DNA of 64,000 bases, taken from contig CP045477.1 of assembly GCA_009392915.1 (NCBI GenBank), positions 640,001 to 704,000 on the forward strand, written 5' to 3'. The translations under genes and the position numbers were made by a program. This document shows positions 2,413 to 47,989 of the stretch, in pieces (the first letter of the stretch is position 1; the number at the start of each line of letters is the position of its first letter). The DNA is from Candidatus Forterrea multitransposorum CG_2015-17_Forterrea_25_41 (GTDB lineage Archaea; Iainarchaeota; Iainarchaeia; Iainarchaeales; CSSED10-239). The notes beneath the pieces were generated by a model, which worked only from the letters and a program-made list of their open reading frames with translations, did not search any database and was not told the DNA's origin.

Positions 2413-2458
2413 AAATAATTCACCTACATTATGTTTTTAAAAATAATAAATTTAATAC

Positions 2459-2614
2459 CTAAGGACCTATAAATGAACAACTTGGACACTTATATTTCTT
2501 TGATATAGATTTACATCTGTTACATCTAATAATTTCTACTTTCCCGCAGTTTGGGCATTTAAATTTTGTGAAATTATCTGTAACTTCTATATTACAACTA
2601 CTGCATCTATCCAT
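2459..2614 (-). CDS. small Zn-ribbon protein (COG2888-like), 51 aa
   Basis: Hand-translated: MDRCSSCNIEVTDNFTKFKCPNCGKVEIIRCNRCKSISKKYKCPSCSFIGP*, with four CxxC pairs. A Zn-ribbon gene next to aEF-1beta is a common archaeal arrangement. Not in the ORF track because it is under 60 aa. Confidence 0.5.
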   Translation of the reverse strand: MDRCSSCNIEVTDNFTKFKCPNCGKVEIIRCNRCKSISKKYKCPSCSFIGP

Positions 2615-2705
2615 TAGTAATGCACCTCTAATTTTTTTAAAAAGAATAATTATATATTAACTTAAAACTATATATATTTAATAAACAAATCATTTTTAAA
2701 AGGGT

Positions 2706-2778
2706 GGGGTTGTAGCATAGTGGATAGTGCAGTTGGCTTCGGACCAACAGGTCGTGGGTTCAAATCCCACCAACCCCT
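2706..2778 (+). tRNA. tRNA-Arg (anticodon TCG)
   Basis: Cloverleaf by hand: acceptor GGGGTTG/CAACCCC, D-stem GCAT/GTGC, anticodon stem GTTGG/CCAAC with loop CTTCGGA (T33, anticodon TCG, G37), T-arm GTGGG-TTCAAAT-CCCAC. No CCA is encoded. Confidence 0.8.
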
Positions 2779-2812
2779 TTTTTCTATTTTTTTAAAAAAA
2801 TTAGAAAGAGAA

Positions 2813-3475
2813 CTATAAATCTTTTTCTTCTAAGATATCAAAGACAATAAGCTTTGAAGGAATATTTTGTAATTCCATCTCTTCTCTTAAATTTTCAGGA
2901 GTATATTTTAAAACTTCAAAGGTATCATAATGCATTGGAATTACAATTTTTGGTTTTAAAAGATTTAAAGCATAACAAGCTTCTTTTGGTCCCATATTAA
3001 ACCTACCATCAATAGGAAGCATCACAATTTCTGGAGCATATAAATCTTTAATAATTTTCATATCTAAAAAAACATTTGTATCTCCTGCAAAATAAATACT
3101 TCTTTGATCATATCTAATAATAAAACCTACAGGAACCCCTTTATTTGAGGAATGCTCAGCTTTAACAAAAGTAAAAGAAATACCTTTATAATCAATTGTT
3201 CCACCTAAATTCCCACCAATTGTTGGAACATGAAATTTATTTAGTTCTTGAGCAAGATCAAAAATTGTAATAATCTCTGCACCAGAATGTTTAGAAATCT
3301 CAATTGCATCTCCTAAATGATCGTGATGATCATGAGTTAATAGAATAACATCTGGCTTAACATCTAAAACACCCATTTTAGATAAAGGATTGTTTGTTAT
3401 AAAAGGATCTAAAAGAATTTTAATATTATTAATTGTGATTAAAAAACAAGAATGTCCAATGTATTTAATATTCAT
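2813..3475 (-). CDS. metallo-beta-lactamase-fold metal-dependent hydrolase (UPF0173-like)
   Basis: LLTHDHHDHLGD motif (HxHxDH) plus downstream His/Asp ligands; 220 aa. Overlaps the upstream gene by 4 nt. Confidence 0.7.
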   Translation of the reverse strand: MNIKYIGHSCFLITINNIKILLDPFITNNPLSKMGVLDVKPDVILLTHDHHDHLGDAIEISKHSGAEIITIFDLAQELNKFHVPTIGGNLGGTIDYKGISFTFVKAEHSSNKGVPVGFIIRYDQRSIYFAGDTNVFLDMKIIKDLYAPEIVMLPIDGRFNMGPKEACYALNLLKPKIVIPMHYDTFEVLKYTPENLREEMELQNIPSKLIVFDILEEKDL

Positions 3476-4329
3476 GATTTAAGCTCCTCACTTTTTTTAT
3501 TAATTTTTTCAATAATTGTAAATGGTCCAAAGAAATAAACTTTTCCAAAACTAAATCTTACTAAAATATCATTAATATAGATTTTAAACCTAATAGATAG
3601 ACTTTGTTCAAAATCTTTTAAAAGAAATTCTTTAAAAGAATCAAAATCTTTAATATTTAACTTAAAAGTAAAATCATTTTTTTTAATAAAAATATTATTA
3701 CTCTCAAAAAAAGTTATAGTCTGAGGATATTGATTTGAGCAATCAATAGTTAGTTCTTCAAAAGAATAAAGTTCTAAAACATGTTTAAAAATATCAAATG
3801 TTTTAGCATTAAGGTTAAAAATTAAATAATCTTCAAAATTTTCATTTTTTAAAATAGTTATATGGTTTGAAAGAATAGATGAGATGTAAGCATAATGAGA
3901 AACACTTGAATCAATTTCTTTTTTTAAAATTTCAAGATCACTTATATAAAAATTAGAACTTGTTTTTCCTGTTTTTAAAAAACTAGGATCTTGCTTACTT
4001 CTTTCAAGAAATATTTGTAAATTTTTTACAATCTCATCAACATCTTCTAAAGAACTTTTCTTTCTTGATTTTTCTAAAAGATCATTTATGTTAATTAAAA
4101 TTTTATTTTTAAGTTTAGACTCAATTGTCTGTCTTCCTTTTTCTGTTAAAAAATAATCATCATTATTCTTTTCAACTTCACCAAAAGCCACTAAATTTTT
4201 TAAAGCTCTTGAAAGAGCAGCTTTTGCAGAATTGACTGATGAATAGTTTGAAACCATTTTTGTTAAAAGATCATTATAATTTGTTTTCTTTTGACTTATC
4301 TGTAAAAGAATTGAATCTGAAAGAGCCAT
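3472..4329 (-). CDS. hypothetical protein with N-terminal winged-helix domain
   Basis: The N-terminus (AKAALSRALKNLVAFGEVEK...YFLTEKGRQTI) resembles a PadR/MarR-like wHTH. The C-terminal ~200 aa have no recognisable motifs. Translationally coupled to the MBL hydrolase. Confidence 0.4.
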   Translation of the reverse strand: MALSDSILLQISQKKTNYNDLLTKMVSNYSSVNSAKAALSRALKNLVAFGEVEKNNDDYFLTEKGRQTIESKLKNKILININDLLEKSRKKSSLEDVDEIVKNLQIFLERSKQDPSFLKTGKTSSNFYISDLEILKKEIDSSVSHYAYISSILSNHITILKNENFEDYLIFNLNAKTFDIFKHVLELYSFEELTIDCSNQYPQTITFFESNNIFIKKNDFTFKLNIKDFDSFKEFLLKDFEQSLSIRFKIYINDILVRFSFGKVYFFGPFTIIEKINKKSEELKS

Positions 4330-4514
4330 ATATATATTTCACATCTTAAAATATTATTAATTACTAAATAATTATTAGAAGGAAAAATATATAAAGACAT
4401 GTTAACATATTTATGTATTAACAAAGAAGTGTTAAGAGAAAAAAGAATATTTTATAAATCGTTTTGTGAAATAAATATATATAAGGAATTATTTTTAGAA
4501 AAGGAGGAGAATAT

Positions 4515-4724
4515 ATGTCAGAATTACCAATAGCAGCAATAGACAGACTTATTAGGAAAGCAGGGGCTGAGAGAGTCTCTGAAGATGCAGCAGAAGAACT
4601 TGGAAAAATATTATCAGAAGTTGCAATAGACATATCAAAACAAGCAATAGAACTTGCAAGACATGCAAAAAGAAAAACAGTAACATCAGAAGATATTAAA
4701 CTTGCTACAAAAACAATGCAATAA
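4515..4724 (+). CDS. archaeal histone (HMf/HTa family histone fold)
   Basis: 69 aa, MSELPIAAIDRLIRKAGAERVSEDAAEELGKILSEVAIDISKQAIELARHAKRKTVTSEDIKLA. This matches the archaeal histone fold signature (PIAPVgRIiKkAGAeRVS...A..L...lE....eI...A...A.HAgRKTV..eDi.LA). A GGAGG Shine-Dalgarno-like sequence precedes it. Confidence 0.8.
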   Translation: MSELPIAAIDRLIRKAGAERVSEDAAEELGKILSEVAIDISKQAIELARHAKRKTVTSEDIKLATKTMQ

Positions 4725-4734
4725 AGGTTTTTTT

Positions 4735-5577
4735 ATGGATAGATTTGACCTACATACACACACTCATTTTTCAGATGGAAAGTTAAGTCCAACAGAATTA
4801 GTGATAAAGGCTAAGGAAATTGGACTAAAAGGAATTTCAATCACAGATCATGATAGTATAGAAGGGTATTTTGAAGCAGAAAAAGCAGCAGAGAAAAACA
4901 ACCTAACCCTTATCTCTGGGGTTGAGATTCAAGGAATGGGTACAGAGATTTTAGGATATGGTTTTGATCCTAAGGATAATTATCTTGAAATGTTTCTTGA
5001 AAAACAAAGAATACAGAGAAAAAAGTTTATTAAAAAAAAAATAGAAGGACTTTTAGAGTATGGTATAGAAATTGACTATAATGAAGTTTTAGAAAACTCA
5101 GGAAAAGGTCAAAACCCTAATTCTGCAAATATAGCACAAGTAATGGTTGAAAAAAGACATGTAAAAAGCCTTGATGAAGCATTTAGTGAATATTTAAGAG
5201 AGATTAGAGTTAGACTTGAAACTCCTCCTACTAGAACAAAAAAAGTTATTCAAATTATTAAAGATGCACAAGGAATACCTGTACTTCCACATCCATGGTA
5301 TCTTAAGGATTTTCAAAAGGCAGAAATTGAATCTTTTATATTAAAATTAGTTTCAGAAGGTCTTTTAGGAATAGAAACTAATGGATATATTCCAGAAGAT
5401 TTAATAAAATATAAAAATACTGTTTTTATGGATAAAATAAAAGAACTTACTAAAAAATACGAGCTAATTGAAACTGCAGGCTCTGATTTTCATGGAGATC
5501 TAGTACATGAAAATAATGTTTTAGGAAAATACACTGTTTCTAAAAAAACAATTTTACAATTAAGCTCTAAAGCTTAG
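4735..5577 (+). CDS. PHP-domain metal-dependent phosphoesterase
   Basis: MDRFDLHTHTHFSDG...GISITDHDSIEG carries the PHP motifs (HxH, DH). ATG at 4735 chosen rather than the upstream alternative start at 4702, which overlaps the histone gene. Confidence 0.65.
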   Translation: MDRFDLHTHTHFSDGKLSPTELVIKAKEIGLKGISITDHDSIEGYFEAEKAAEKNNLTLISGVEIQGMGTEILGYGFDPKDNYLEMFLEKQRIQRKKFIKKKIEGLLEYGIEIDYNEVLENSGKGQNPNSANIAQVMVEKRHVKSLDEAFSEYLREIRVRLETPPTRTKKVIQIIKDAQGIPVLPHPWYLKDFQKAEIESFILKLVSEGLLGIETNGYIPEDLIKYKNTVFMDKIKELTKKYELIETAGSDFHGDLVHENNVLGKYTVSKKTILQLSSKA

Positions 5578-6136
5578 ATTTTACAAAATCTAATGTTTTT
5601 TTAAAGACTTGATCTATGTTTATGTTTGTAGTATCTAAAACATAGTTGAAAACAGATAAATCTTTACCAAAATCAAAACCATAAATTTTTTTATAATGAG
5701 CTCTATTAAACTTATCTTTTTTTCTTAAAATTTTATCTGCAGATTCTAAAGAAATTTTATTTCTTAAAGCCATTCTTTCAGCTCTTATCTTATGAGTTGC
5801 TTTAAGCCAAATTTTTAAAACCCCTTTTTTCTTTTTTAAAAGATAAGGAAGAGTTGAAGAATCTAAAACAATATTTTCATTTTCTTTAACTAAAGAAAGC
5901 AAATATTTATCTAAATTTTTATCAAAAGAAAAATCATTTTTTCTAACAACCATAAGATTTGATTTTTCATACCAACCTTTATTCATTTTAGTTTTTTCAG
6001 AAATTGTTTTTTGATTATCTGTAAATTGTTTTAAAACATCAGAAGTATGAACAACTTTATATTTTAGTTGTTTACCTAAATACCTCGAAACCATGCTTTT
6101 ACCAGAAGCTGCATACCCACAAACTAAGATAATCAT
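5567..6136 (-). CDS. cmk: archaeal-type cytidylate (CMP) kinase
   Basis: P-loop MIILVCGYAASGKS. The C-terminal half (LKIWLKATHKIRAERMALRNKISLESA...YKKIYGFDFGKDLSVFNYVLDTT) matches archaeal Cmk (LKIWLDAP.EVRAKRIA.REG...YKEIYGIDIDDLSIYDLVINT). Confidence 0.65.
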   Translation of the reverse strand: MIILVCGYAASGKSMVSRYLGKQLKYKVVHTSDVLKQFTDNQKTISEKTKMNKGWYEKSNLMVVRKNDFSFDKNLDKYLLSLVKENENIVLDSSTLPYLLKKKKGVLKIWLKATHKIRAERMALRNKISLESADKILRKKDKFNRAHYKKIYGFDFGKDLSVFNYVLDTTNINIDQVFKKTLDFVKSKL

Positions 6137-17688: not shown

Positions 17689-18702
17689 ATGTTTAAAAAG
17701 AGTACTAAAGCTTATATTCTTATGGATAAGAAAAATAAAAATACAGAAGAAATATTTAAAGATTTAAAGAAAAAACATTATGGAATTTATGGAAAACACT
17801 CTGCAGTTGAAATCTGTAGCTGGAATAAAAAAGCATTAAGAGGAGAGGGTGTTTGCTATAAAGAAAAATTTTATAATGTAGATTGTCATAGATGTGCACA
17901 AATAACCCCTACAGTTATTAATTGTCATTTTAATTGTAACTTTTGTTGGAGACCTTCAGAATATATGAAAGAATGGGAAATGAATGAAGATTTATTAGAT
18001 GATCCTAAAGATATTGTTGAAGGACTTTTTAAAGAAAGAATCAAACTTTTAACTGGGTTTAAGGGAAACCCAAAAGTTAATCAAGAAAAATATCAAGAAG
18101 GGACAATTCCAACACATGTAGCAATCTCTCTTGCTGGAGAACCTACAATTTATCCTAAAATAGGAGAAATGGTTGGATATTTAAAAAATAAAAAAATGAG
18201 AAGTATATTTATTGTAACAAACGGAATGGAAACAGATAGACTTCTTGAAATGAATAAAAATAAACAACTTCCAACACAACTTTATTTATCTATTGTTGCA
18301 TGTACAAAAGAAATGCATCAAAAAATAAACAGAACAAAAATTAAAGATAGTTGGGAAAGATTAAATAAAACTATTGATATTTATCCAACACTTAATTGTA
18401 GAAAAGTAATTAGATTTACTTTAATTAAAGGAATGAATGATTCACTTAAATATTTAGATAAATTTATTGAAATGTTTGAAAGAAGTAATACAGATTATTT
18501 AGAAATTAAATCATACATGCATTTAGGACTTTCAAGAGAAAACTTAAGTGCAGATAATATGCCTGATCATCAAGAAGTTTTAGAATTTTCAAAAGAAATT
18601 GAAAAAAGAAGTAAATTATTTAAGATTCACAATGAACAAAAAGAATCAAGAATAATTCTTTTAAAAAATAAAAATAGTAAAGTTATAGATTTTATTAAAT
18701 AG
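17689..18702 (+). CDS. radical-SAM tRNA 4-demethylwyosine synthase (Taw1/TYW1-like)
   Basis: CHFNCNFCWRP is a CxxxCxxC radical-SAM cluster motif with the CxFCW context typical of TYW1/Taw1. An extra Cys pair lies upstream (CYKEKFYNVDCHRC). Confidence 0.6.
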   Translation: MFKKSTKAYILMDKKNKNTEEIFKDLKKKHYGIYGKHSAVEICSWNKKALRGEGVCYKEKFYNVDCHRCAQITPTVINCHFNCNFCWRPSEYMKEWEMNEDLLDDPKDIVEGLFKERIKLLTGFKGNPKVNQEKYQEGTIPTHVAISLAGEPTIYPKIGEMVGYLKNKKMRSIFIVTNGMETDRLLEMNKNKQLPTQLYLSIVACTKEMHQKINRTKIKDSWERLNKTIDIYPTLNCRKVIRFTLIKGMNDSLKYLDKFIEMFERSNTDYLEIKSYMHLGLSRENLSADNMPDHQEVLEFSKEIEKRSKLFKIHNEQKESRIILLKNKNSKVIDFIK

Positions 18703-18715
18703 AGAGAAGAAAAAA

Positions 18716-19576
18716 ATGGAACTTAATACTGAACTTATAGATGTTTTAAAAACAATTAATAAAGAAAAAGTTATTTGTCTTTTAGCACCAAGCTTTGTTG
18801 TAGATTTTAAATATCCTAAAATAATTTTAGAACTTAGAAGAATTGGTTTTAATAAAATTGTTGAACTTACATATTCTGCAAAATTAATAAATAAAGAAAT
18901 ACACAAACAAATATTAGAAAATAAAAAAAAACAATATATTTGTGGAAACTGCCCTAGTGTTGTTAAATATATTGAAAATAAATATCCAGAACTTAAAAAA
19001 AATATTATGGATATAGCTTCACCTATGGTTATTATGGCAAGATTTATGAAAGAAAAATATCCTAGTCATATAATTGTTTTTGTAGGACCTTGTTTTTCAA
19101 AAAAACAAGAAGCAAAAGAAAACAAAGAAGTTGATTATGCACTTACCTTTAAAGAAATAAATGATATGTTTTTGTATGCTAAAAAAAATGGTTTTTATAA
19201 AAAACAAGAAAATGAAAATAAGCATTTTGATAAATTTTATAATGATTATACAAAGATATACCCTTTATCTGGTGCAGTTGCAGAAACCATGAATACTAGA
19301 GAAATATTAAAACCAGAAGAAATGATTATTGCAGATGGAATTAAAGAAATTGATAAGGCAATTATGAAATTTAAAGAAAATAAAAAAGTAAGATTTCTTG
19401 ACATGCTTTTCTGTACTGGAGGTTGTGTTGGAGGACCTGGCATAATTTCAACAGAAACTATTGAACAAAGAGAAGACAGAGTTATTCATTATAGAGATAA
19501 ATCAAAAAATGAAAAACTTGGAAAAAACTTTGGAAAATTTAAATATGCAGAAAACCTTAGTTTAAAGAGGAAATAA
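18716..19576 (+). CDS. minimal [FeFe]-hydrogenase-like protein (H-cluster domain only)
   Basis: Three H-cluster motifs in order: ICGNCP (L1, cf. TSCCP), VGPCFSKKQEA (L2, cf. MPCxxKKxE), FCTGGCVGGPG (L3, cf. MACxGGCxxGGGQP). The N-terminal APSFVVDF also resembles the H-domain. No N-terminal ferredoxin domains. Confidence 0.55.
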   Translation: MELNTELIDVLKTINKEKVICLLAPSFVVDFKYPKIILELRRIGFNKIVELTYSAKLINKEIHKQILENKKKQYICGNCPSVVKYIENKYPELKKNIMDIASPMVIMARFMKEKYPSHIIVFVGPCFSKKQEAKENKEVDYALTFKEINDMFLYAKKNGFYKKQENENKHFDKFYNDYTKIYPLSGAVAETMNTREILKPEEMIIADGIKEIDKAIMKFKENKKVRFLDMLFCTGGCVGGPGIISTETIEQREDRVIHYRDKSKNEKLGKNFGKFKYAENLSLKRK

Positions 19577-35762: not shown

Positions 35763-37796
35763 ATGAACTATATTGAACTTGCAAGTAAAATTGAAGAAAG
35801 AAAAGCTATTGTTCCTGGACATAGAACTTGTCCTGGGTGTCCTATAGCCATTATCTTAAGAACAGCATATGCTGCAACTGATAAAAAAATAATAACATCA
35901 TCTGCTACATCCTGTGCAGAAGTTACAACAACAATTTATCCTTACACCTCATGGAATGAACCTTGGATTCATTCTGTTTTTGCAAATGCTGCAGCAACCA
36001 TATCTGGTGTTGAAACTGCTTATAGAGCTTTAAAGAAAAAAGGAAAGATAAAAGAAGAAATTAAATTTATGGCTTTTGCTGGAGATGGTGGAGCTTTTGA
36101 TATTGGACTTCAGAGCCTTTCAGGAGCTCTTGAAAGAGGACATGATTTTGTTTTTGTTTGTTACGATAACGAAGGTTACCAAAACTGTTTATCAATAGAT
36201 TCATTAATAATGACAGAAACAGGTCTTAAAAAAATAACTGAAATTAAAAAAGGAGAGAAAGTCTGGGCTTTTGATCAAAATAAACATTTGCCGGTACTAA
36301 AAGAATGTACAGGGGTCTTTAATAATGGAAGAAAAAGAGTATACGAAATAGAAACTATACATCAAAATATAAAAGCAACATCAAACCACCCATTCTTAAC
36401 TTTAAAAAGAAACGGTAGAGGAAAAGAAAACGAGCTTATCTGGAAAACAGTTTCTCAATTAAAGGTAAATGATGAAATTGTAACTATGAGAAAACTTTAT
36501 GATAAAGGAAAAGCATATGAATTTAATAAAATAAAGCTAACTAAAAAAGGCGATTATAAAGTAAATATTATTAATGATGTTAAGCTTCCAGAAAAATCTA
36601 CAAAAGAATTAATGTTATGGCTAGGTTTATATGTTGGAGATGGATGGATTAGAGAAGAAAGAGGAGAAATTGGATTTGCTCTTCCAGAAAATACAGAAGA
36701 GAGAAAAATACTTCTTAAGATCCATAAGAAAATATTTGGACAAGAAAATAAATCTAAAGATAAATATTACATATACTATAATTCTGTAAATATTTCAAAA
36801 TTTATTAATTCCTTAGGGTTTATGCAAGGTGCTAAAAATAAAACAATACCATCTTGGGTTTTTACTTTACCAATAGATCAAAAAGAAGAATTTGTAAAAG
36901 GTTTATTAATGTCTGATGGATATATTTATAAAAAGAAAAAAGATAGTTGTAGATATTTATCAGCAAGCAAAGAATTAATTAAAAGATTAAGACTTTTACT
37001 TCAAACAATGGATTACAGAGTAGGAAAAATAACTATTCAGAAAAAACCAAAAGGAACTTTTGTAGTTTATAGAGAAATGTTAAATGATGGAGAATACTAT
37101 AGTATTTGTTTTAGTAAAAAAGACAAATGGGATGTTAAAAAATACCCTAACCAATACAAATATCAAAATTATTTTATTGAAAATGAATATTTTGAAACAA
37201 GAAAAATAAAAAATATTATTCCTAGAGGAATTGAACAAACATTAGATTTAAGAGTTGATGGAGAACACAACTTTATTGCAGATGGAATTGTTGTTCATAA
37301 CACAGGAGCACAACGATCCTCTGCAACACCTTATGGAGCTTCAACAACTACCACTCCTGGAGAGAAAAAAGAATTTCAAAAAGATCTTGCAAGGATAGCT
37401 ATTGCTCATAAAATACCATATGTTGCAACTGCAAACCCAGGAAATCTTTTAGACATGCATGAAAAGTTTAGAAAGGCTTTTGAAAAGAAAGGGCCAGCTG
37501 TAATCATTGTTTATGCAGCATGCCCTACAAACATGAAGGCTCCTGAAGACTTAACTATTGATATTTCAAAGCTTGCAACTGAAACTAATTTTTGGCCACT
37601 TTATGAAGTTGAAGATGGAAAATATAAAGTAAACTATAAGCCTGCAAATAAAAAACCTATTGAAGAATTTTTAAAAATGCAAACTAAGTTTAAAGAAGTT
37701 TTAAAAGATAAAAATGAAATTAAAAAAATACAACAAGAAATAGATGATGATTTTAAAGAACTTCTAAAAATGGAAGAAGCTTTTCCTTTAAAATAA
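35763..37796 (+). CDS. porB: pyruvate:ferredoxin oxidoreductase beta subunit, interrupted by an in-frame intein
   Basis: Exteins give a normal ~305-aa PorB. N-extein carries the TPP-binding CPGC / GDGG; the conserved YxNTGxQxSxxTPxGAxTxTTP motif is split as ...YDNEGYQN|[intein]|TGAQRSSATPYGASTTTTPGE. Confidence 0.85.
   Translation: MNYIELASKIEERKAIVPGHRTCPGCPIAIILRTAYAATDKKIITSSATSCAEVTTTIYPYTSWNEPWIHSVFANAAATISGVETAYRALKKKGKIKEEIKFMAFAGDGGAFDIGLQSLSGALERGHDFVFVCYDNEGYQNCLSIDSLIMTETGLKKITEIKKGEKVWAFDQNKHLPVLKECTGVFNNGRKRVYEIETIHQNIKATSNHPFLTLKRNGRGKENELIWKTVSQLKVNDEIVTMRKLYDKGKAYEFNKIKLTKKGDYKVNIINDVKLPEKSTKELMLWLGLYVGDGWIREERGEIGFALPENTEERKILLKIHKKIFGQENKSKDKYYIYYNSVNISKFINSLGFMQGAKNKTIPSWVFTLPIDQKEEFVKGLLMSDGYIYKKKKDSCRYLSASKELIKRLRLLLQTMDYRVGKITIQKKPKGTFVVYREMLNDGEYYSICFSKKDKWDVKKYPNQYKYQNYFIENEYFETRKIKNIIPRGIEQTLDLRVDGEHNFIADGIVVHNTGAQRSSATPYGASTTTTPGEKKEFQKDLARIAIAHKIPYVATANPGNLLDMHEKFRKAFEKKGPAVIIVYAACPTNMKAPEDLTIDISKLATETNFWPLYEVEDGKYKVNYKPANKKPIEEFLKMQTKFKEVLKDKNEIKKIQQEIDDDFKELLKMEEAFPLK
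36186..37301 (+). mobile_element. intein with LAGLIDADG homing endonuclease (372 aa) in porB
   Basis: Begins CLSIDSL (block A Cys1) and has block B ATSNHPF (TxxH). Two LAGLIDADG motifs (LWLGLYVGDGWI, FVKGLLMSDGYI). Ends ...NFIADGIVVHN with +1 Thr. Boundaries were mapped codon by codon. Confidence 0.8.
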
Positions 37797-43537: not shown

Positions 43538-44812
43538 CTAACTTCTTAAATTAAATTTAAAAACAAAAGCATCTAATGGAAGATTGTTTTTAGCAGCAGT
43601 TACATTTTCTGAAGAATAATGATACATTTCGATATATTCTATATTTCCATTAAATTGTTCTGCAAAAGAATCAATAGAGCCTAAATTTGCAGCACCAAAA
43701 ACATTCTTAGGATTATAATTTTCAGAATAATAAATTGGATCAACATGTCCTCCATATGGCCAAGTCCAAACTTCTGAACAAATAATGTTCCTAAATTCAT
43801 CATAATAACATGCACTAAAGTTTTTTCCAGTCTTAAATAAAATTACTTCATAATAATCACTGGATGGAGGAAATTTAAATTCAGATTGAAAAGGTTCTGC
43901 AAATTCATCCCAACCTCCCCACCACCAAGAATTAGCACCACCAACAGCAACTATGTGTTGAGAAGGAATAATTTGTAATTTAAATCCACTCCTATTAGTC
44001 CCAGTCATTCCAACAGTCCCAGAATATTTATAAGACATTAAAGTATTTGCAGAAGTTAAAGAATCAATTTTAAATTTAAGTTTAATAATAAAATTTGAAA
44101 TATTTGGAAGATCTAGATCTCCATTAACATCAACATAACTTTCATTTACATCTAATCTATAAGCTAAAGGGAAAAGTTCTTCAAAAGAATAAATTTTATT
44201 TCCATCAAAATAATTATTATAATAAGAAAGAGTTTTTTCTCCAGAATCATCCCATCTAAAAGCAAATCTTGAAGAAGTTTTTGATTGATTATTTTTAACA
44301 GACTCAATAGATAAATAATAAGTATCTCCACAAGAAATAGTATCTAAAGGAATATTTGAAACAACTAAATTATTTAAAATATTTGGATTTAAATTTTCAG
44401 AATCCTGAATAACATCATTATAAGTTACAACATATCTACTATTTTCTATTTTTTCATTATTTGAAGTCTCTAAAATAAGTTTATAAGTACCATCTTTTGA
44501 AATTGGTTTCCAAGAAAAATCTAAAAGACCAACTTTATTTTTTGAATTTTCTGGATTAACTAAATAACAATCTAAATATTTTGCGTTTACAGAAACAATA
44601 GTAGGTGCTAAAGGAGCATCTTTTGAAGAAGAAATATTGTTTGCTTGATCTGAAACAGAATCTCTTGATTGTCCACCTAAAGATACAAGAATAGTTATTA
44701 TAATTACAGCAATTAATACAGCACCACCAATTAATATTAAAGTTTCAAGACTTGCTTGACCTTTATTTTTTAATAAATTTAGTAATTTAGAAGGATTTTT
44801 AATAATAGCCAT
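43538..44812 (-). CDS. large pilin-like / adhesin protein with class III (type IV pilin) signal peptide
   Basis: N-terminus NKG|QASLETLILIGGAVLIAVIIITILV (Q+1, E+5) is a textbook archaeal prepilin signal. It is followed by a ~380-aa Cys- and sequon-containing extracellular domain. Confidence 0.5.
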   Translation of the reverse strand: MAIIKNPSKLLNLLKNKGQASLETLILIGGAVLIAVIIITILVSLGGQSRDSVSDQANNISSSKDAPLAPTIVSVNAKYLDCYLVNPENSKNKVGLLDFSWKPISKDGTYKLILETSNNEKIENSRYVVTYNDVIQDSENLNPNILNNLVVSNIPLDTISCGDTYYLSIESVKNNQSKTSSRFAFRWDDSGEKTLSYYNNYFDGNKIYSFEELFPLAYRLDVNESYVDVNGDLDLPNISNFIIKLKFKIDSLTSANTLMSYKYSGTVGMTGTNRSGFKLQIIPSQHIVAVGGANSWWWGGWDEFAEPFQSEFKFPPSSDYYEVILFKTGKNFSACYYDEFRNIICSEVWTWPYGGHVDPIYYSENYNPKNVFGAANLGSIDSFAEQFNGNIEYIEMYHYSSENVTAAKNNLPLDAFVFKFNLRS

Positions 44813-44879
44813 ACATAATCACTTATAATATTAGCTATATTAATGTATAAATACTTTACTAATAATTAAAAAAATCATT

Positions 44880-46988
44880 ATGTGCTCAATAATTGGTTTT
44901 GTAAACTACAAAGAAACTAAAAAAGAAATAATCTCTGCGTTTAAAACTCTAGAAAAAAGAGGTCTTGATGGATATGGAGTTTTTTGTAATGATAAGTGTA
45001 GTTATTTTAAAGAGATTAAAGAGATAGAATCTAAAAACATCCCTGATGATGTTGTTTTTGGACACAACTTACTTTCTATAACAGGAAATGTTTCACAACC
45101 TATTATTATTGATAAAAAAGTACTTTTATCTAATTGTGAAATATATAATTACAAAGAACTTTCTTCAAAATACAAAATAGATTCAAAAAATGATTCTGAT
45201 TTTTTACTTAAAGCAATAATAAAGATTGGAAAAAAAATATTTACTGAAATTAATGGACCTTATGCTATATGTTATTATGATGGCAGAGAAATTTATTTAA
45301 GAAGAGATTTATTAGGGATAAAGCCTTTATGGTATTCAATAGAAAAAAAATCATTTGGGTTTGCTTCAGAAAAGAAAGTTTTAGAAAATGCAGGTTTTAA
45401 AAAAATTGAATTTTTAGATCCTAGAAAAGAACTTTCTTATAATGTTTTAAAAAATAAAATTAGTTTTAAACAAATACCATTCTTTAAAATAGAAAAAAAA
45501 CAAACAACAAAAGAAAAAGTATATGAAAAACTAAAAAATGCAATTTTTAAAAGAGCATCTGGAAAACAAAAAATTGCTCTTTTATATAGTTCAGGAATAG
45601 ATTCTTTAGTTATTGCAAAAATTTTAAAAGATAATAAAATTCCTTTTAAAGGGTACTTTGCATATTCTCAAGATATTTTAAACCCTAAAGATCTTTCAAA
45701 TGTTTTAAGAACAGAAAAAGAATATGGTTTTTCTATTGAAAAGATTAAAATTTCTAAAACAGAAATTGAAAAAACATTACCTTTACTTATAGAGAGAGTA
45801 GAGTCATCAAACCCTATAAAAATTGGTGTGTCCTTACCTATATACTTTGCTTCAAAAAAAGCAAGAAAAGATGGTTGTAAAGTTATTCTTTCAGGACTAG
45901 GATCTGATGAAATTTTTGCAGGATATTCAAGATTTAAAGAATCAACTAATCTTTTAAAAGATACTTTAAACCTTTTATACCAAATGCATGAAAATGATCT
46001 TTATAGAGAAGATGTGGTTTGTACAAATAATAACATAGAAGCAAGATTTCCATATCTTGATAAAGAAGTTATTGAAGAATCTTTTTGCCTTACAGACAAA
46101 CAAAAAATTAATAATGAAGAAAATAAAGTAATCTTAAGAGAGATTGGAAAAGAAATTGGTCTTTTAAAAGAAGATTACAAGAGGAAAAAAACAGCAGCAC
46201 AATACGGAAGTGGATTTGATAAAATGATTGAAAAAATAGCAAAAGAAAATAATGTTAAACAAAAAGGAGAATTTCTTAAAAAACTTTCAAAAAAAGAAAA
46301 CCTTACTTTAGGATGTCTTTTCTCAGGTGGAAAAGATTCAAACCTTGCATACCACATTATGGCAAGACAAAATTATAAGATTGCATGCTTAATGACAATG
46401 GTCACTGAAAACCCAGATTCTTATATGTTTCAAAAAATTGATGAAAAAATACTTTCTCTTCAATCCAAAGCATTAGAAGTGCCTTTTGTTTTTCAAAAAA
46501 CAAAAGGAATTAAAGAAGAAGAACTTAAAGACCTTAAAAGATTACTTTTCAAAGCAAAAGAAAAATATTCTCTTCAAGGAATAATTACTGGTGCTATAAA
46601 AAGTAATTATCAAAGAGAAAGAATACAAGATGTTTGTAATGAACTTGGTTTAAGAATGTTTTCTCCTCTTTGGAACAAAACACAAGAAGGTGTTTTAAAA
46701 GAACTTTTAGATGATGACTACCAAGTAATGATTGTAAAAATTGCAGGACAAGGACTTTCTGAAAATTGGCTTGGAAAAGTTTTAACTAAAGAAGACGTCA
46801 TTAACTTAAAAATAATTAATAAAAAGAAAGGAATTAATGTTGCAGGAGAAGGAGGAGAATATGAAAGTATTGTTCTTGATGCTCCACTTTATAAGCAAAA
46901 AATAGTAATCACAAGTGCAAACCCAATTATGGAAAATGAAATCACTGGTTATTTAGATATTTTAAAATTAGGTTTAGAAGAAAAATGA
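44880..46988 (+). CDS. fusion protein: asparagine-synthetase-like glutamine amidotransferase (AsnB) + diphthine-ammonia ligase (Dph6/MJ0570-like)
   Basis: Residues 1-~460: Ntn-GATase MCSIIGF, then AsnB motifs SSGIDSL, LSGLGSDEIFAGY, REDV...EARFPYLD. Residues ~475-702: PP-loop LFSGGKDS, GAIKSNYQRERIQDVCNELGLRMFSPLW, GEGGEYESIVLDAP, closely matching DPH6/MJ0570. Confidence 0.65.
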   Translation: MCSIIGFVNYKETKKEIISAFKTLEKRGLDGYGVFCNDKCSYFKEIKEIESKNIPDDVVFGHNLLSITGNVSQPIIIDKKVLLSNCEIYNYKELSSKYKIDSKNDSDFLLKAIIKIGKKIFTEINGPYAICYYDGREIYLRRDLLGIKPLWYSIEKKSFGFASEKKVLENAGFKKIEFLDPRKELSYNVLKNKISFKQIPFFKIEKKQTTKEKVYEKLKNAIFKRASGKQKIALLYSSGIDSLVIAKILKDNKIPFKGYFAYSQDILNPKDLSNVLRTEKEYGFSIEKIKISKTEIEKTLPLLIERVESSNPIKIGVSLPIYFASKKARKDGCKVILSGLGSDEIFAGYSRFKESTNLLKDTLNLLYQMHENDLYREDVVCTNNNIEARFPYLDKEVIEESFCLTDKQKINNEENKVILREIGKEIGLLKEDYKRKKTAAQYGSGFDKMIEKIAKENNVKQKGEFLKKLSKKENLTLGCLFSGGKDSNLAYHIMARQNYKIACLMTMVTENPDSYMFQKIDEKILSLQSKALEVPFVFQKTKGIKEEELKDLKRLLFKAKEKYSLQGIITGAIKSNYQRERIQDVCNELGLRMFSPLWNKTQEGVLKELLDDDYQVMIVKIAGQGLSENWLGKVLTKEDVINLKIINKKKGINVAGEGGEYESIVLDAPLYKQKIVITSANPIMENEITGYLDILKLGLEEK

Positions 46989-47010
46989 TTGTTTTTTTAA
47001 AAGAGAACAA

Positions 47011-47457
47011 TCATTTTAAAATATCTTCAACAATTGATAAAAATTCATAAGCACTTTTTTTAATTCCTAAAGAATCTTCTTTAGAACATAAATCTCCAGA
47101 ATATTGAATTGATTCTCTAAAAGATCTATACATGTTTAATAGATTTAAATATTTTAAAACTTGAGGATATTTACTATATTCTTCTTTTAAAAAAGTAATT
47201 AAACAATAATGGCTTCTTTCTGTATATCCTTTATTAAACAATAAAGCTCTTGCTGAATGAAATTAACTATTATAAGACATTAAATAAGAAGTATCATAAT
47301 AATCTATATTAAAACTCCCTTCTGCTCTTTCTAAAAAATGTCTTGAAACTTTAAGTGAACCATTAATTCTTTCAAAAGTATTATTGTCTTTTTTAATTAA
47401 TTTTTTTTCTAAACATTCTTCAAGAGTCATTAATATTAGCACCCCACAAACAAACAT
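47011..47457 (-). pseudogene. HEPN-domain gene interrupted by an in-frame TAA stop (at 47263-47265)
   Basis: ORFs 47263..47457 and 47011..47241 are in the same frame, separated by one TAA. The joined product (...SLKVSRHFLERAEG...SYLMSYNS*FHSARALLFNKGYTERSHY...) has HEPN-like helical layout. Confidence 0.45.
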
Positions 47458-47989
47458 GATTATTTAAAATAGAAGTTATAAATTCATCCTTTTGATTTAA
47501 TTTTTTAACCCATTGGTTTAAAGATAACTTAGTTATATTAATCTCTTTTTTAAAAACATTTTCAAGATTTAAAATTGAATTATAATTTATTTTATCAGAA
47601 TTATAAATTATTAATATATCAACATCGCTATTTTCTGAATAATTACCAGAAGAATATCCACCATAAAGGATTAATGAAACTAAACTAGATTTATTTTCTT
47701 CAATAAATTTAGAAAAAGAAGAAGAATTTAATATACTTCCAATAAAATATGATTTTTTAAAAGATTTTACAAAAACATTATCATTATTAAGACTAAAAAA
47801 AACAGAATTTGATTTTTTCTCTTTAAAAAGAACAGTATCTTTAACATAACTATTACAGTATTTTAAAACACTACTTGCACTTACATTTAATTTTCTAGCA
47901 AGTTCATTTAAATGAATCTTTGTATTTGGATTTTCTATAAAATAAGAGAGAACTTTAAAACCAGTATATTGAGACCATTCTTTAAGCAT
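47420..47989 (-). CDS. wHTH-fused minimal nucleotidyltransferase (MNT, antitoxin-like)
   Basis: NTase motif LYGGYSSGNYSENSDVDILI (GS...DxD); the N-terminal ~70 aa are wHTH-like. Overlaps the HEPN gene, a typical MNT-HEPN pair. Confidence 0.55.
   Translation of the reverse strand: MLKEWSQYTGFKVLSYFIENPNTKIHLNELARKLNVSASSVLKYCNSYVKDTVLFKEKKSNSVFFSLNNDNVFVKSFKKSYFIGSILNSSSFSKFIEENKSSLVSLILYGGYSSGNYSENSDVDILIIYNSDKINYNSILNLENVFKKEINITKLSLNQWVKKLNQKDEFITSILNNHVCLWGANINDS

Follow-up and report, generated by a model that had tools for sequence, protein, structure and literature searches.

A Dph6 domain fused to a divergent AsnB-type amidotransferase module in an Iainarchaeota-like archaeon, and its possible coupling to glutamine

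The stretch of archaeal DNA considered here, a 64 kb window of contig CP045477.1 from Candidatus Forterrea multitransposorum, carries on its plus strand, at positions 44880..46988, a single gene in which a glutamine amidotransferase module of the asparagine synthetase (AsnB) type is joined to a diphthine–ammonia ligase (Dph6). Diphthamide, the modification that Dph6 completes on elongation factor 2 (EF-2), is conserved in archaea and eukaryotes; it influences the fidelity of translation, and diphtheria toxin acts on it. To our knowledge, the last step of its synthesis has been described only as ammonium-dependent.

The fusion gene is one uninterrupted open reading frame (ORF) for a protein of 702 aa, the coordinates including the stop codon, and the protein starts with MCSIIG. 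Residues 1–190 (44880..45449, like all features of the gene on the plus strand) form a class-II, N-terminal nucleophile (Ntn) glutamine amidotransferase domain, recognized through Pfam GATase_7/GATase_6 (residues 55–169), family conservation and a fold match to Escherichia coli AsnB (1ct9); within it, the motif HNLLS at 45063..45077 holds, by alignment, Leu64 at the position of AsnB Arg49. Residues 191–465 (45450..46274) form an AsnB-type PP-loop ATP-pyrophosphatase domain, identified by family conservation and by Pfam Asn_synthase, which matches residues 214–357 and a second stretch. Its PP-loop 1, SSGIDS, lies at 45588..45605 and its motif SGLGSDE, which reads SGEGSDE in AsnB and here has Leu340 at the AsnB Glu348 position, at 45891..45911. 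An in-frame linker of 11 aa, LKKLSKKENLT (46275..46307), leads to the Dph6 domain (DUF71/PF01902; residues 477–702, 46308..46985), which is defined by domain matches and signature residues; Pfam Diphthami_syn_2 (PF01902) covers residues 479–696 with E=1.8e-56, and the family motifs lie at 46323-46340 (PP-loop 2, SGGKDS), 46602-46622 (SNYQRER), 46665-46673 (PLW) and 46848-46865 (EGGEYE). The matching sequences in the PDB are PF0828 (3rjz, E=2e-51), PH1257 (2d13) and E. coli AsnB (1ct9, E=5e-22). A first-pass annotation, made from the letters of the window alone, had proposed such a single-gene fusion and had quoted SGGKDS, SNYQRER..PLW and GEGGEYE for its C-terminal part; all of these motifs are present, the Pfam families are those of AsnB and Dph6, and neither a stop codon nor a frameshift occurs across the linker at nt 46275-46307. 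Within the assembly collection, the identical protein recurs in 87 index blocks, and 49 of these have contigs of 0.2–1 Mb; an NCBI record of it is named 'diphthine--ammonia ligase [archaeon]'. The continuous ORF, the recurrence of the identical protein in those 87 blocks and more than 120 orthologues that have the same junction rule out that the junction arose from misassembly or a frameshift. It is almost certain that the fusion is real and conserved and that its Dph6 domain is genuine.

The gene is monocistronic, the genes on both flanks being on the minus strand. An A/T-rich, TATA-like element, GTATAAATA, lies at 44836-44850, approximately 30 nt upstream of the ATG, and the stop codon marks the start of an inverted repeat and T-run, TGATTGTTTTTTTAAAAGAGAACAATCA, at 46986-47012; the two elements fit a gene transcribed as an archaeal unit of its own, although in DNA with ~24 % G+C this is weak evidence. 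A scan for promoters and terminators with bacterial models, which is uninformative on the DNA of an archaeal host, gave 15 promoter-like sites against 15.2 expected by chance.

The C-terminal domain passes the equivalog cutoff of NCBIfam TIGR03679 (Dph6_archaeal), scoring 235.8 bits against 197.3, and is ~45 % identical to PF0828 and PH1257. De Crécy-Lagard and colleagues published in 2012 a list of residues that separates the Dph6 subgroup of DUF71 from the subgroup involved in B12 salvage (PMC3541065), and all nine of the Dph6-type residues are kept here, namely S514, Y515, E548, Y577, Q578, A622, E657, E660 and E662, which correspond in that order to S44, Y45, E78, Y103, Q104, A149, E183, E186 and E188 of PF0828. 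These residues and the family motifs are conserved in 87–100 % of the 119 fusions that were aligned. Models of the PAB0415/TTX_0299 type give the domain only 46–62 bits, against cutoffs of 250, and assignment to B12-salvage DUF71 or to another PP-loop family is ruled out by the TIGR03679 score together with the Dph6-specific residues; no domain search placed this part of the protein outside Dph6, in agreement with the first-pass annotation. That the fused form can serve as the only Dph6 of a cell is indicated by the complete genomes of Methanohalophilus mahii and Methanosalsum zhilinae, in which the fusion is the only DUF71 homologue (supplement to PMC3541065) and in which it must therefore be a working Dph6. 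DPANN genomes, for their part, are reported to carry dph5 and dph2, the latter often split (PMC6143161).

Residue counts for the N-terminal module refer to the same 119 fusions aligned with E. coli AsnB, in AsnB numbering anchored on the HMMER alignment to 1ct9; the AsnB reference sequence agrees with the HMMER alignment over residues 40–437, and the motif TTIR, cited here by its letters, has chain positions 321–324 in 1ct9. In the glutaminase, Cys1 (117/119), Asn74 (119/119), Glu76 (118/119) and Asp98 (119/119) are kept, together with Arg30 and His47, and removal of Met1 leaves Cys2 of the translated protein as the N-terminal nucleophile. Two positions of the site are replaced, Arg49 by leucine in every one of the 119 and Gly75 by cysteine in 117 (Cys86 here). 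In human asparagine synthetase (ASNS), the side chain of the corresponding Arg-48 is placed to contact glutamine (PMC6748925). To judge from the residues that are kept, use of glutamine by this domain is plausible, but with Arg49 changed to leucine in every fusion its binding, if any, would be non-canonical.

The nucleotide site of the AsnB-like synthetase domain is invariant in all 119 fusions, including S234, G236, D238 and S239 of PP-loop 1, S346, G347, K429 and K449, the last of which is equivalent to the essential Lys-466 of human ASNS (PMC6748925). The second position of PP-loop 1 is glycine in 95 % of the family (SGGxDS) and serine in the clade of the present gene, and the equivalents of AsnB D351/E352, Y357, D384 and R387 are conserved as well. 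Residues specific for aspartate, on the other hand, are replaced: Glu348 by leucine in 117 of 119, TTIR by xKxG, and Lys376 by glycine or leucine. Glu-364, the human counterpart of Glu348, is shared by known asparagine synthetases, and the variants E364A and E364Q are inactive (PMC6748925). With these three sites replaced and the human variants inactive, asparagine synthesis by the module appears very unlikely. The alignment, moreover, stops near AsnB residue 476, the last ~75 AsnB residues being absent, and the score against NCBIfam TIGR01536 (asparagine synthase), 245 bits, does not reach the cutoff of 267.1. The module is thus very probably something other than a canonical asparagine synthetase, and the first-pass annotation, which had called it a complete AsnB-like enzyme, was right as to the family of its glutaminase and PP-loop domains but not as to completeness. 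Invariant residues peculiar to the family (Y375, D378, an AAQYGS motif and K314) appear in the remodelled pocket, and mean pairwise identity is 0.52 for the glutaminase, 0.56 for the middle PP-loop domain and 0.56 for Dph6. Because its nucleotide site is intact and it is under strong purifying selection, the middle domain probably functions in ATP binding or adenylation and does not serve as an inert spacer.

An AlphaFold2 model of the fusion protein, built on an 86-sequence alignment, has a mean predicted local distance difference test score of 93 and a predicted template-modelling score (pTM) of 0.90, and thus confidently predicts a compact arrangement of the three domains. The Dph6 part superposes on PF0828 and PH1257 with template-modelling (TM) scores of 0.94–0.96 and a root-mean-square deviation (rmsd) of ~1.4 Å, and the glutaminase and middle domain superpose jointly on E. 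coli AsnB 1ct9 (TM 0.79, rmsd 3.3 Å), in which this juxtaposition of glutaminase and synthetase houses the ammonia tunnel. Among the fold matches of the model, no solved structure spans all three domains, the best TM score normalized to the query being 0.57.

Database searches recovered at least 120 full-length orthologues of ~700 aa, 40–77 % identical and equal in architecture and junction, from Woesearchaeota, Nanoarchaeota, Diapherotrites/Iainarchaeota and unclassified archaea. Species representatives in GTDB with the fused gene belong to the Iainarchaeota, Woese-/Nanoarchaeota, Altiarchaeota and Nanosalina (including a complete chromosome), as well as to metagenome-assembled genomes (MAGs) of the Methanosarcinales and to Methanohalophilus sp. 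RSK, so that the fusion proposed from a single window recurs in both DPANN lineages and Methanosarcinales. An exhaustive search with residues 1–470 gave 324 cluster representatives at E<1e-30; among the top 147 of the 324, 51 have a full Dph6 domain and 96 have none, and most carry the signature L49/K322/L348. Four standalone modules on long DPANN-type contigs have no Dph6 within 5 kb. Members of the subfamily score 245–257 bits against TIGR01536, the standalone ones (248–257) included, all of them below the cutoff of 267.1, whereas more distant archaeal AsnB-like relatives of the R49 or Q348 type pass it with 333–348.

Several forms depart from the three-domain arrangement. In an uncultured Methanosarcinales MAG (L042, 110-1488), a stop codon closes the AsnB-like ORF and a separate Dph6 ORF, starting MKLGILCSGGKDS, follows a few bases downstream in another frame; here two genes may truly lie side by side, or the MAG may contain a sequencing frameshift, and the adjacency is counted as a functional link. 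Two further proteins, P0230 (L087, 3001-4485) and P0266 (L088, 2164-3579), consist of the PP-loop and Dph6 domains without a glutaminase and have unrelated genes directly upstream, and a P0136-like gene (L031, ~3900-5632) encodes the same pair with only a remnant of the glutaminase; in these forms PP-loop 1 and K429/K449 are still intact. In the cultured methanogen Methanohalophilus sp. RSK (L030), a transposase gene of the IS605-family OrfB (TnpB-like) type (2420-3532, -) abuts the fusion gene (3545-5776, +) on its upstream side, the fusion protein has no Pfam GATase match, and homology to the present protein begins at residue 123 of the latter, the N-terminal ~120 aa being unrecognizable, so that its glutaminase has probably been disrupted by the insertion sequence. 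From the existence of the PP-loop–Dph6 forms that lack a glutaminase it follows that the glutaminase is not the reason why the middle domain is kept.

Taken as a whole, the gene is best read as the host's Dph6, placed C-terminally in a compact three-domain enzyme with a divergent, non-asparagine amidotransferase module, and glutamine-dependent amidation is its most likely activity, although confidence and doubt in this reading are about evenly balanced. By homology, the Dph6 domain would adenylate the carboxylate of diphthine on EF-2 and amidate it to diphthamide, while the N-terminal Ntn-Cys glutaminase and PP-loop domain may deliver ammonia through an intramolecular tunnel of the AsnB type, as the hypothesis of 2012 would have it, whereby amidation of diphthine would become dependent on glutamine. 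Glutamine-coupled amidation of diphthine is a reasonable reading, and the narrower claim that ammonia derived from glutamine is what the Dph6 domain uses can be put forward only tentatively from the residues present, on slightly less than balanced grounds. Several points weigh against it. The residue lost at Arg49 in all 119 fusions is the ligand of the glutamine α-carboxylate, and Gly75 is changed to cysteine as well. By analogy, a tunnel of the AsnB type would be expected to feed ammonia to the site of the middle domain and not obviously to that of Dph6. The glutaminase is dispensable, to judge from the P0230, P0266 and L031 forms and from the truncated GATase of Methanohalophilus sp. RSK, and the standalone modules do not adjoin dph6 in the four contigs inspected. 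Characterized Dph6 enzymes act alone with free ammonium (EC 6.3.1.14; PMC3541065), and a search of the literature found no biochemical test of an AsnB–DUF71 fusion, of the glutamine hypothesis or, directly, of a glutamine-fed Dph6.

The alternative that survives best, possible yet rather unlikely, is that two or three independent activities share one polypeptide, the AsnB-like module amidating a non-aspartate carboxylate substrate of its own and Dph6 using free ammonia. That substrate might be of low molecular weight, or it might be a further site on EF-2 or elsewhere in the translation apparatus, and the fusion would then reflect co-expression or a shared macromolecular substrate. Much of the above fits this: the module with its L49/K322/L348 signature stands alone in many DPANN contigs, no ATP-site residue varies in it, its degree of conservation matches that of Dph6, its pocket is remodelled and not degraded, and variants that have lost the GATase keep an intact PP-loop domain beside Dph6. 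The possibility was also raised by a reviewer of the 2012 paper, who asked which of the PP-loop domains uses the ammonia and what the AsnB-like one catalyses (PMC3541065). On the other side, no candidate substrate is known for such an independent module, diphthine offers a single carboxylate, archaeal EF-2 is not known to be amidated a second time, and the retention of the fusion in several phyla, with a linker of 11 aa and a compact prediction (pTM 0.90), suggests more than co-expression.

A bolder proposal, and an unlikely one on present evidence, treats the middle domain not as a passive conduit for ammonia but as an active adenylating enzyme in its own right, the second in the protein. Its pocket, remodelled by the change of Glu348 to leucine, the loss of TTIR and Lys376 and the gain of the invariant Tyr375, Asp378 and AAQYGS, would accept a non-aspartate substrate tied to diphthamide or EF-2 biology; one candidate is a cationic group, for instance the trimethylammonio-carboxylate of diphthine. 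If this were true, an unrecognized glutamine-dependent step or route of EF-2 modification, with Dph6 as an obligate partner, would operate in many DPANN archaea and some methanogens, and the persistence of the PP-loop–Dph6 fusion after loss of the glutaminase would be explained.

Less probable again is a non-catalytic middle domain that acts as a scaffold or tunnel, holding the glutaminase to Dph6 or serving in dimerization or EF-2 docking, with ATP at most an allosteric switch. Such a domain would offer the simplest route from AsnB to an ammonia donor for Dph6, and both the loss of aspartate-activating residues and the compact architecture agree with it. However, its nucleotide-binding constellation is strictly invariant over orthologues of ~40 % identity, overall it is conserved to the same degree as the catalytic Dph6 domain, and it persists in variants with no glutaminase to regulate; this strict conservation, the glutaminase-less variants included, argues against a mere scaffold or switch. 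As to a bifunctional asparagine synthetase/Dph6, in which the module would make asparagine from aspartate, ATP and glutamine and which the first-pass annotation had offered as its alternative, the best family matches (TIGR01536 and AsnB), the Joint Genome Institute (JGI) name 'asparagine synthase (glutamine-hydrolysing)', a fold closest to AsnB and ASNS and the kept D351/E352, Y357, D384, R387, K429 and K449 speak for it, but with the score below the TIGR01536 cutoff that R49- and Q348-type relatives exceed, Glu348 changed to leucine at a position where the human variants E364A and E364Q are inactive, TTIR, Lys376 and Arg49 replaced and the C-terminal ~75 residues gone, it is very improbable.

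The surroundings of the gene are those of an archaeal chromosome. The window holds housekeeping genes for Topo VI A, MCM, eIF-1A, eIF-2β, RIO1, exosome and proteasome α, as well as SBDS, RadA, SUF and PFOR, and the closest named genome for the fusion is 'Candidatus ainarchaeum sp.' (L007; 98 % identity), of the DPANN phylum Iainarchaeota. No dph2, dph5 or EF-2 gene was found in the 64 kb window or within 10 kb of the fusion gene, and none of these genes was found near the standalone modules or at the fusion loci of Nanosalina and Methanohalophilus. The divergent neighbour at 43538-44812 (-) encodes a 424-aa protein with no Pfam match, the N-terminus of which (…KNKGQASLETLILIGGAVLIAVIIITILV) is similar to class-III (type IV pilin-like) signal peptides of archaea; in Nanosalina (L021) a surface-protein gene (Laminin_G_3) stands in a comparable place before the fusion gene, which is probably coincidence. 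On the other flank, at 47011-47989 (-), a nucleotidyltransferase gene (NTP_transf_2/Polbeta) and small downstream ORFs adjoin the fusion gene and resemble a minimal nucleotidyltransferase toxin–antitoxin-like pair, and comparable NTP_transf_2 genes occur near a standalone AsnB-like gene in L004/L005. Farther away, a TPP_enzyme_C gene at 35763-37796 (+), with a 677-aa product, carries an intein (Pfam Intein_splicing and a weak LAGLIDADG_3 match) and adjoins a POR_N/PFOR_II gene, and probably encodes a subunit of pyruvate:ferredoxin oxidoreductase. At 17689-19576 (+), a Tyw1-like radical-SAM gene (Wyosine_form) is followed directly by one for a 286-aa protein with Fe_hyd_lg_C, the Fe-only-hydrogenase large subunit's C-terminal domain, a pairing that is unusual in a reduced DPANN genome.

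If diphthine amidation is indeed coupled to glutamine in these archaea, the pathway would gain a genuine if modest extension, with an ammonia-channelling enzyme serving a protein substrate. The first-pass annotation had regarded a glutamine-coupled diphthamide synthetase as not previously described; in this it was mistaken, the fusion and the hypothesis both being in the literature (PMC3541065) and NCBI and JGI already using the name diphthine--ammonia ligase. The fusion architecture and the idea of ammonia supply are thus known, and because that idea was published in 2012 the window adds a member and not a discovery. What is added here is detail at the level of residues and the variant forms, with no new architecture; the residue signature and the standalone and glutaminase-less forms give a concrete experimental handle on the role of the second PP-loop domain, the question asked in 2012.

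Among known systems, the nearest are the fusions reported by de Crécy-Lagard et al. (2012, Biol Direct 7:32, PMC3541065) from Methanohalophilus mahii, Methanosalsum zhilinae and 'Ca. Nanosalinarum', in which AsnB (a class-II glutaminase and an Asn_synthase PP-loop domain) is N-terminal to DUF71 and for which it was hypothesized that glutamine hydrolysis supplies ammonia to the PP-loop domains. They share with the present gene the order of three domains in a single polypeptide, and only lineage and sequence differ, identity being 34–40 % and the present host being an Iainarchaeota-like DPANN archaeon; the Nanosalina and Methanohalophilus/Methanosarcinales homologues that were found with the N-terminal module have the same L49/C75/non-Glu348 signature. 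Standalone Dph6 proteins such as PF0828 (3rjz/3rk1) and PH1257 (2d13) have the fold, SGGKDS, EGGExE and signature residues of the C-terminal 226 aa in common with it, but they are single-domain enzymes that use free ammonium, whereas the Dph6 described here is tethered by an 11-aa linker to an amidotransferase module of 465 aa. E. coli AsnB (1ct9) and human ASNS (6gq3) have an Ntn-Cys glutaminase and a PP-loop synthetase oriented as in the fusion, which nonetheless lies outside the TIGR01536 equivalog despite its AsnB-family build. The eukaryotic Dph6 of yeast, YLR143W, in which DUF71 is followed by two RidA/YjgF domains, likewise joins Dph6 to a possible local generator of ammonia, an idea that also comes from the 2012 paper (PMC3541065). 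Its accessory domains are RidA deaminase-like and C-terminal, however, and are unrelated to the N-terminal glutaminase and PP-loop domain seen here. Finally, in GAT-QueC of the Crenarchaeota, which takes part in archaeosine synthesis, a class-II glutaminase is likewise joined to a PP-loop enzyme whose substrate is a macromolecule of the translation machinery, although the PP-loop family and the substrate are different and the protein has two domains, not three.

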